A DNA stretch of 64,000 nucleotides from an uncultured Candidatus Binatia bacterium (GTDB lineage Bacteria; Desulfobacterota; Binatia; Bin18). The notes below the pieces were generated by a model. It saw only the letters and a program-made list of their open reading frames with translations. It was not told the DNA's origin and made no database searches. This document shows positions 5,016 to 6,290 of the stretch, piece after piece. Positions within the stretch are counted from its first letter, which is position 1; each line of letters opens with the position of its first letter. A program made the translations under genes and the position numbers. The stretch covers positions 1,312,001 to 1,376,000 of the forward strand of contig OZ241744.1 in the NCBI GenBank assembly GCA_965200965.1, read 5' to 3'.

Positions 5016-5130
5016 AGTCTCCCTCCCTCGGTAGGTGTTCTTCGCACCCGTATTGATACCTGCTTGACACGTTTGGTCAACCAAGGTGAACTGGGGATAT
5101 TATCTTGTCTGAACAGAGGGGGATCAGCGC

Positions 5131-5799
5131 ATGAGCAGCTCAACTGAACTCAACCAAGAACTCAAGCAGGCCATTGAGGCGTTTCAGCAGGAAATGCTGC
5201 CCAAAATCCCAGCCGACATTCGGAGGACGCTCCAGCGTACCACCGAGGACCTGGTCAAAACCGGAATTGCCGACCGCGCCCTGACGGTGGGTGACACGGC
5301 TCCTGATTTCAGTCTGCCAAATGTGCGCGGCGAACAGGTCAGCCTGTCGGGCCTGCTGGACACAGGTCCGGTCGTCCTGGCCTTTTACCGGGGTAACTGG
5401 TGACCCTACTGCAACCTGCAGTTGCAGGCTTACAAAAAACATCTCGCCGCAATACAAGCCTACGGTGCCTCAGTCCTCGCCGTCTCTCCCCAGACGCCGG
5501 ACAACTCTTTGACAATGGCCGAGAAGAACGCCCTGCCGTTTGAGGTCTTAAGCGATGTGGGCAATCGGGTGGCCCGCAGTTTCGGGCTGGTGTTTGCCCT
5601 GGTTGACGAGTTGCGTCCGCTGTACGATCAGATCGGGGCGAAGCTGTCGGATTTCAACGGCGATACCTCATACGAACTGCCCATTCCCGCCACCTATATC
5701 ATTGGCCGGAACGGCGTCATTCAACTGGCGTACGTTGATGCCGATTATACCCATCGGCTTGAGCCGGCAGACATTATTGACCGCCTGGCCGCCACCTAG
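5131..5799 (+). CDS. Peroxiredoxin-like AhpC/TSA family selenoprotein (UGA 5401-5403 as Sec, U-P-Y-C)
   Basis: ORFs 5131-5403 and 5422-5799 are one frame interrupted only by TGA: FYRGNW-TGA-PYCNLQLQAY, versus the family motif FYRGxWCPYC; hairpin follows immediately. Confidence 0.85.
5404..5430 (+). promoter_or_regulatory. Candidate bacterial SECIS element
   Basis: CCTGC-AGTT-GCAGG stem-loop (5415-5428) with loop G 18 nt after the UGA; an alternative stem CTGCAAC/GTTGCAG (5409-5427) is also possible. Confidence 0.55.
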
Positions 5800-5816
5800 G
5801 TGCAGTGAGGCAGACC

Positions 5817-6290
5817 TCAGGAGCCGGTCGTGACCTCGACCAGAATCTGATCGGGGTCACGCACATACACAGAGCCGGCCTCTTCAGAGCCGTGCAGCGA
5901 ATGCGGAACCTGTCCGGCTTTCAGTCCGGACACAATTCTCCGGTAGTGTTCGGGACTGGCTTTGAGCGCTACATGATGCATACTGCCCACCCCCCGGACG
6001 GTCCGGGCCGGCCCCTTTTTCGGAAAGTCGAAAAAGGCCAACTGATTACCGCCCCCCATATCCAGGAAGATATGGGTTGAGTTGGGTTCATCCCGGTTGG
6101 TCATGATCCTGGTCAGCCGCATGCCCAACACCCTGGTATAAAACTCAATCGTGGCCTCCAGGTCTGAACAGATCAGGGCCAAGTGATCGACCCCCGCGGT
6201 CGGGACGGTCCCGGCCGGGGCTTCCCCGTGCGGCAAATAGCGCGCTCTCAACTCCCGCCGCCGCGCCTGATAGGCATCGTGTTCTGCCAT
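5817..6290 (-). CDS. VOC/glyoxalase family protein
   Basis: GVDHLAL...FYTRVLG, MHHVAL, SVYVRDPDQILVE; GGAGG RBS before ATG 6290. Confidence 0.88.
   Translation of the reverse strand: MAEHDAYQARRRELRARYLPHGEAPAGTVPTAGVDHLALICSDLEATIEFYTRVLGMRLTRIMTNRDEPNSTHIFLDMGGGNQLAFFDFPKKGPARTVRGVGSMHHVALKASPEHYRRIVSGLKAGQVPHSLHGSEEAGSVYVRDPDQILVEVTTGS

Follow-up and report, generated by a model that had tools for sequence, protein, structure and literature searches.

Prx-like selenoproteins, relatives of the peroxiredoxins (Prx) with selenocysteine (Sec, U) in a UxxC motif, were reportedly first described by Kryukov and Gladyshev in 2004. In the passages of the literature that concern it, the family appears as a 'Prx-like protein' in the Sargasso Sea study, as 'Prx-like 1' in the Global Ocean Sampling study (PMC2398784; pfam00578, UxxC, 225 sequences and 2,740 Cys homologs), and as a 'Prx-like thiol:disulfide oxidoreductase' of Geobacter, Syntrophus, and Desulfotalea in a 2006 genome survey (PMC1794560). 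A passage of a 2026 review (PMC13188914) lists it as 'predicted with high confidence', a status that makes the family a prediction, biochemically unverified. These passages describe the family from Deltaproteobacteria and marine metagenomes, whereas the gene considered here belongs to Candidatus Binatia. It occupies positions 5131-5799 on the plus strand of a 64,000-nucleotide stretch of contig OZ241744.1 (the whole stretch is called the window), and its reading frame contains a TGA codon. We consider it very probable that 5131-5799 is one intact gene with a conserved TGA that would be decoded as Sec. A literature search on selenoproteins of Binatia or Binatota found no paper, the word 'selenocysteine' occurring together with Binatota only in a reference list.

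The locus resembles the Prx-like family in its PF00578 match, in having UxxC for TxxU, in its many Cys homologs, and in a predicted selenocysteine insertion sequence (SECIS) just past the UGA. The likeness is to the published description of the family, not to a reference sequence, and the protein has a helical N-terminal extension of about 50 residues and an insertion near residues 155-180. On its sequence, with both the PF00578 match and the UxxC motif present, the gene is assigned as a predicted Prx-like UxxC selenoprotein from a new lineage. The preliminary description had called it a hidden selenoprotein. That holds for the gene calls, which split it, but not for the literature, where UxxC Prx-like selenoproteins are already a listed family.

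Frame translation of 5131-5799 is broken only by the TGA at 5401-5403; the frame read found no second stop and no frameshift. Translation table 11 yields two open reading frames (ORFs) of 90 aa (5131-5403) and 125 aa (5422-5799), and the TGA encodes the first residue of W-U-P-Y-C within FYRGNW-U-PYCN. This bears out the initial claim of two ORFs sharing one frame, with a sole interruption at the first Cys of FYRGxW-C-PYC. The Pfam AhpC-TSA (PF00578) match spans the TGA, covering residues 53-198 with an E-value of 2.7e-32 and 111.7 bits against a cut-off of 26.

Orthologs were sought in 41 genomes, comprising the genome that carries the window (G000, hereafter the own genome) and 40 relatives. 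Full-length orthologs with 52-100% identity are present in 19 of them: the own genome, seven members of the same genus, ten of other genera of the family, and one of another family of the class. Every one of the 19 contains exactly one in-frame TGA, at the same codon within W-U-P-Y-C-N-L-Q-L, and all are collinear across it. In the remaining 22 genomes the matches were weaker and fell on other members of the family (best E-value 2.1e-18, at most 41% identity). Contigs from four runs of four studies, all labeled sponge metagenomes, cover 5050-5850 with the TGA unchanged; one of these contigs represents a strain with 10 differences, all outside 5401-5428.

The alternation of TGA and Cys among relatives, suggested earlier as a check, is present. 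TGA occupies the codon in all of the orthologs, and C-P-Y-C is found in 118 of 120 near-full-length database homologs; Cys codons also stand at the aligned site in homologous loci read from genomes. The other two (P0003 and P0018) are public records of Sec orthologs written as W-W-P-Y-C, where the Trp is the gene caller's reading of TGA in contigs translated with a code in which TGA means Trp. The Cys form P0002 is 73% identical to one Sec ortholog, a higher identity than many pairs of Sec orthologs reach. The Cys forms, which come from Cyanobacteria, Chloroflexota, Bacteroidota, and others, share 51-65% identity over 87-100% of the length, the same length class, and the same invariant F-Y-R-G-x-W-C-P-Y-C-N-L block. 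Their names, 'peroxiredoxin-like family protein' or 'AhpC/TSA family protein', are database labels, and we know of no tested function for any of them. Further Sec forms include paralogs and three Desulfobacterales metagenome-assembled genomes (L061, L069, and L080), whose full-length homologs are 40-44% identical and have TGA at the same codon. The hairpin in these three is different (stem GAGCU/AGCUC, loop GGA, 20 nucleotides (nt) after the UGA). Two readings are open to it, an independent gain of Sec or a replacement of the SECIS.

Both halves of the gene are under purifying selection. The ratio of nonsynonymous to synonymous substitution rates (dN/dS; Nei-Gojobori method), calculated for the own gene against each of the seven same-genus orthologs over 80 codons before and 70 after the TGA, is 0.09-0.22 upstream and 0.04-0.12 downstream (dS 0.26-0.92) in all seven pairs. 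The preliminary description had cautioned that a nonsense change might have produced the TGA. In that case the locus would be a decaying pseudogene or an assembly error, a TGC or TGT of a peroxiredoxin-like gene having become TGA, and lesions may indeed exist in this genome, where an AhpC/TSA gene (G000:C1:1301688-1302050) has a TAG besides its TGA. The low dN/dS downstream, together with conservation of the TGA in orthologs as distant as 52% identity, therefore excludes such a lesion here. Recovery of the same TGA in four studies, including a diverged strain, speaks against an assembly error, as the otherwise clean frame does against decay, and we regard this explanation as extremely improbable.

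The own genome, a single contig of 3.62 Mb that is 99.3% complete, encodes the whole Sec machinery, for which a search had also been proposed. The products of selA (581.8 bits), selB (366.5 bits), and selD (396.3 bits) all score above their cut-offs. The selD gene directly follows selB and has its own in-frame TGA within G-U-A-G-K. A tRNA-Sec gene (72 bits) adjoins selA on the opposite strand, and ARAGORN reports it as tRNA-SeC with anticodon TCA. Across the class, selA is above the cut-off in 39 of the 41 genomes searched, including all 19 with an ortholog; two selA genes are in pieces, one split over two contigs (G026) and one broken by a TAG (G019).

In-frame TGA codons occur in five of the 11 AhpC/TSA matches of the own genome. 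Two of these are TxxU genes (G000:C1:2709335 and 3312768), two are UxxC genes (the window gene and a paralog at G000:C1:444373), and one has an extra TAG. No in-frame TGA was found among the seven CMD/AhpD-like matches or the five molybdopterin-enzyme matches. The selenoproteome of this genome looks to be of a thiol-redox type, without a Sec formate dehydrogenase. The gene with the extra TAG (G000:C1:1301688-1302050, plus strand) lies about 10 kb before the window start. It belongs to the TxxU peroxiredoxins and its TGA occupies the Sec position; the in-frame TAG falls 10 codons past the TGA, within the gene's own SECIS-like stem. The TAG may reflect a true lesion or pseudogene, or else an error.

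Could the TGA instead stand for an ordinary amino acid (Trp or Gly, under codes 4 or 25), or be passed by general leaky read-through, rather than encode Sec? The two public proteins recorded with Trp at this site would fit such a reading. TGA, however, is the commonest stop in the own genome, ending 745 of 1341 stop-to-stop frames of at least 400 codons, and the neighboring genes terminate in it, which rules out a code that gives TGA a sense meaning. Homologs carry Cys rather than Trp at the position, the genome has a dedicated tRNA-Sec along with selA, selB, and selD, and a conserved hairpin follows the codon. We find reassignment or leaky read-through scarcely credible, and favor decoding as Sec.

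Shortly after the TGA, synonymous variation is missing from a run of codons. The 19 orthologs share 119 degenerate codons whose residue is kept in at least 15 of them, with a mean synonymous diversity of 0.49. Synonymous diversity is zero in only four of the 119, and these are consecutive (codons 95-98). Codons 93, 94, and 99 are nearly or fully fixed, and the Pro codon directly after the TGA varies freely. Among the Cys forms, codons 95-98 show free synonymous variation, and none of the eight with the same N-L-Q-L peptide uses the 12-mer of the Sec forms. Furthermore, a contig of another organism, from run X8, matches the window only at 5398-5433 (36 bases, from TGG TGA through the hairpin) and has unlike flanks, in agreement with conservation at the nucleotide level that is limited to the SECIS region.

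Repeated CUGCA/UGCAG words allow three overlapping hairpins in this segment (models A, B, and C; Table 1). The bacterial SECIS model of Zhang and Gladyshev, as quoted in a passage of the 2026 review (PMC13188914), specifies a loop of 3-9 nt, a stem of 4-16 bp, a G in the first two loop positions that is mostly followed by G or U, a distance of 16-37 nt from the UGA, and a minimum free energy (MFE) of -7.5 kcal/mol or below. Model C agrees with every one of these constraints: its 4-nt loop has G at position 2 followed by U, its stem is 5 bp, its loop lies 16 nt from the UGA, and its energy is -7.9 kcal/mol. It fits the consensus at the lower limit of spacing and stability and overlaps the two alternative hairpins. 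Its stem begins 11 nt after the TGA, which matches the stem-loop with a loop G that the preliminary description had placed about 11 nt downstream. A gathering-threshold Rfam scan of the whole window gave no matches; to our knowledge Rfam has no general bacterial SECIS family, so this null result says little.

A simplified SECIS scan (contiguous stems only and the four quoted constraints, which is not bSECISearch) separates Sec from Cys forms. The AGUU hairpin at a spacing of 16 is found in all 19 Binatia Sec forms, 14 of them at or below -7.5 kcal/mol and five at -7.2. All six other Sec forms have a hairpin with a G in the loop at a spacing of 16-21, and three of these pass the energy cut. The Cys forms differ in this respect as well as in the residue itself, since only one of 57 passes and 24 lack any candidate hairpin. 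The hairpin is held to be more than chance because of this comparison with other sequences, not because of the single-sequence fold.

Within the own genome, the other selenoprotein genes examined (selD, the two TxxU peroxiredoxins, and the UxxC paralog) allow, when judged by eye, hairpins whose loops begin 16-18 nt past the UGA and have a G among their first three positions. In the MFE folds, selD and one peroxiredoxin take this register, whereas the UxxC paralog and the second TxxU gene do not. The UxxC paralog has the word GCAGUU at the same spacing as the window gene. Its orthologs keep the loop AGUU(G/A), and in L132 the stem UCAGC/GCUGA has become UCGGC/GCCGA, a compensatory change. Because the other Sec genes allow a similar register and the paralog has GCAGUU at the same distance, we prefer model C over model A as the register that SelB would use. 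The preliminary description's 222-aa Sec enzyme is supported by the machinery, the invariant TGA, the Cys homologs, and this Sec-specific hairpin.

A broader proposal combines several parts. Binatia might be an undescribed selenoprotein-rich class with a thiol-redox selenoproteome. Its SelB might read an unusually small, lineage-typical SECIS, namely GC-AGUU exactly 16 nt after the UGA, common to two paralogous UxxC genes and frozen over about 50% protein divergence. Three mutually exclusive hairpins could then modulate Sec insertion. Taken jointly, we view these propositions as conceivable but rather doubtful.

The read-through product was modeled with AlphaFold2 (AF2) from an alignment of the query and 24 hits, picked from the 120 so as to represent varied sources. 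The model predicts one compact domain with a mean predicted local distance difference test score (pLDDT) of 92.7. Four N-terminal helices (residues 2-49) precede a thioredoxin fold, in which a helix starts at residue 92, directly after U91. Thirty columns are invariant in 25 sequences, among them F85, Y86, R87, G88, W90, C/U91, P92, Y93, C94, N95, L96, and P184.

Public gene calls in the own genome and its relatives record a 90-aa piece ending in FYRGNW and a 94- or 117-aa piece starting at an internal Met, in line with the earlier expectation that pipelines would split the gene. Taken at face value, these calls would suggest two separate products: an N-terminal protein of 90 residues that stops at the TGA, and an internally started C-terminal protein. 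Neither piece, however, has a whole thioredoxin fold, whereas the modeled read-through product is a single domain. Six of the 30 invariant columns (C91-L96) fall in the segment between the TGA and the annotated internal starts (U-PYCNLQLQAYKKHLAA...), and each Cys form is one protein, about 215-230 aa long. We attach almost no weight to two products and retain one continuous protein.

Foldseek identifies BCP, AhpE, and PrxQ as the best solved matches (template modeling (TM) scores of 0.85-0.88 on the target), followed by ResA/DsbE (ResA TM 0.76-0.85). The peroxiredoxin active-site tetrad is PxxxTxxC...R, and only its Cys is retained here. In alignments with solved BCPs and with the AhpC/TSA paralogs of the own genome, C94 falls on the peroxidatic Cys and U91 on the Thr of TxxC. 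R87 stands in place of the Pro, and P186 in place of the Arg that four TxxC/TxxU paralogs keep. The W-C-x-x-C motif and that Pro are common to two TlpA/ResA-like paralogs of the own genome and to the UxxC paralog. From these alignments, the active site is predicted to be of thioredoxin type rather than peroxiredoxin type, with Sec at the position of the thioredoxin-type attacking Cys and not at the peroxidatic Cys. The preliminary description had placed the UGA at the catalytic Cys; this stands for the first Cys of W-C-P-Y-C in the thioredoxin sense, but the peroxidatic Cys of peroxiredoxins aligns with C94.

The protein might still be a selenoprotein and a true peroxiredoxin, with C94 peroxidatic as in BCP/PrxQ and residue 91 only tuning its reactivity. 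The best Pfam match, the nearest solved structures, and the alignment of C94 with the peroxidatic Cys all point that way. Three of the four active-site residues are nevertheless replaced (R87, U91, and P186), and none of them is lost in the four TxxC/TxxU paralogs of this genome; moreover, Sec occupies the place of the attacking Cys of thioredoxins and TlpA/ResA, and W-C-x-x-C together with the Pro recurs in the two TlpA-like paralogs. We judge a true peroxiredoxin very unlikely and prefer a thioredoxin-type center.

PrxU (NF040737) and other TxxU peroxiredoxins, of which the own genome has two, share the fold and the Pfam family, but they retain the Arg and have Sec in place of the peroxidatic Cys, whereas in the window gene Sec lies three residues earlier and Pro replaces Arg. 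The protein scores 30.8 bits with the PrxU model against a cut-off of 270. SelL-related proteins (NF040769), a Prx-like thioredoxin-fold redox family tied to selenoproteins, match residues 56-217 with 41.6 bits against a cut-off of 120, so the protein is not a member. TlpA/ResA/DsbE proteins resemble it in sequence and structural matches, with W-C-x-x-C at the helix start and a Pro before the following strand. They are membrane-anchored and extracytoplasmic. The window protein scores far below the cut-offs of these families and, in both sequence and AF2 model, begins with amphipathic helices instead of a hydrophobic signal; the product is probably cytoplasmic.

We propose that the SelA/SelB/SelD/tRNA-Sec system of this organism would decode the TGA as Sec, with SelB binding the short hairpin within the coding sequence just past it, preferably in the register of model C. 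The product would be a 222-residue thioredoxin-fold 'Prx-like thiol:disulfide oxidoreductase' with its helical N-terminal extension. By analogy, the U91 selenolate may attack an oxidized substrate, whether disulfide, sulfenic acid, or hydroperoxide, C94 may resolve the adduct to give a U91-C94 selenenylsulfide, and a thioredoxin-type reductant may regenerate the reduced enzyme. This cycle is suggested because in established thioredoxin-fold chemistry the N-terminal residue of CxxC is the one that attacks.

Several points weigh against the proposed Sec enzyme and its SECIS. Insertion of Sec at U91 is itself a prediction, and the list of runs containing this DNA includes none from RNA. All NCBIfam selenoprotein models score below their cut-offs. 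The most stable fold is model A, which breaks the SECIS rules with a spacing of 12 nt and a G at loop position 3, and model C is weaker, sits at the lower spacing limit, and drops to -7.2 kcal/mol in five of 19 orthologs. Folded as a single sequence, 5395-5470 gives no signal beyond chance (z = -0.15; equally good folds in 82 of 200 shuffles). The RNAalifold consensus, calculated for 16 of the 19 orthologs (L024, L026, and L027 were omitted as near-identical to L023), is also model A, with three pairs showing one-sided compatible changes, none broken, and none compensatory. Neither register has any pair changed on both sides, all stem variation being C-G to U-G or U-A to U-G, and shuffled alignments equal the observed covariation score. 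Support for the hairpin therefore comes from conservation, not covariation. The equivalence of the Arg and Pro positions derives from sequence alignments and not from a superposition; it comes mainly from the paralog alignment, with which a second, weak stretch of the solved-BCP alignment agrees. Finally, comparison of the 19 loci revealed no conserved operon partner that would hint at a substrate.

As annotated, a predicted active redox enzyme is recorded as two fragments, which leave out everything from the Sec codon up to the annotated internal start, the U-P-Y-C center included. At least 18 further genomes of the class call for this correction too. Candidatus Binatia would join the lineages with UxxC Prx-like selenoproteins, and the candidate SECIS, very compact at 14 nt and accompanied by natural Cys-form controls, could be used to test what a non-model SelB reads. 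Knowledge of the Prx-like family itself is unchanged, and we present the result as a sound annotation correction rather than a surprise.

Table 1. Positions of the gene, its predicted active-site codons, RNA hairpins, and associated features (window coordinates unless a G000 coordinate is given)
Feature	Position	Strand	Description
Whole gene, predicted selenoprotein	5131..5799	+	222 codons and TAG stop; Prx-like thioredoxin-fold protein with U91-P-Y-C94 center
TGA, predicted Sec codon (U91)	5401..5403	+	TGA in 19/19 orthologs
TGC, C94	5410..5412	+	Predicted resolving Cys of UxxC; invariant column; aligns with BCP-type peroxidatic Cys
P186	5686..5688	+	Aligned with catalytic Arg of own-genome peroxiredoxin paralogs; predicted cis-Pro of a thioredoxin-type site
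Codons 95-98 (AAC CTG CAG TTG)	5413..5424	+	Sole degenerate conserved codons without synonymous variation in 19 orthologs
Model A, alternative hairpin	5409..5427	+	7-bp stem CUGCAAC/GUUGCAG (5409-5415 with 5421-5427), loop CUGCA, -9.7 kcal/mol, spacing 12 nt
Model B, hairpin			6-bp stem, loop ACC, -6.0 kcal/mol
Model C, preferred candidate SECIS core	5415..5428	+	5-bp stem CCUGC/GCAGG (5415-5419 with 5424-5428), loop AGUU (5420-5423), -7.9 kcal/mol
Shine-Dalgarno-like GAGGGGGA	5116..5123	+	7 nt ahead of ATG 5131
Weak sigma-70-like promoter match	5074..5103	+	TGGTCA, 18-nt spacer, TATTAT; prediction only
selB and selD; selA/tRNA-Sec region	G000:C1:3224694-3227602; G000:C1:1720603-1722075

The start codon and a GAGG(A/G)GGA-type motif ahead of it are aligned in all eight genus members. 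The promoter scan gave one site, compared with an expectation of 0.4 from shuffled sequence. The gene looks monocistronic and has no terminator match. Its upstream neighbor is a divergent PQQ (pyrroloquinoline quinone) dehydrogenase gene and its downstream neighbor a convergent glyoxalase-family gene. Both are retained at only eight of the 19 loci, all within the same genus, and therefore no operon inference is possible. Three neighboring ORFs were inspected and are intact. When the window was scanned by length alone for further ORFs bridged by a TGA (at least 70 codons on each side), 55 candidates were returned; examined by eye, only the gene at 5131-5799 has a redox motif in a coding-looking context.

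The intergenic region upstream of the gene, at 5070-5090, contains the word CGTTTGGTCAACCAAGGTGAA, which includes the palindrome TTGGTCAACCAA. Complete or partial copies of this word precede the gene in six of the eight genus members. Six members of the genus also have a segment of about 60 nt between this word and the ribosome-binding site, which this genome and L022 lack. The word CGTTTGGTCAACCAAGGTGAA may be an operator or a promoter element.

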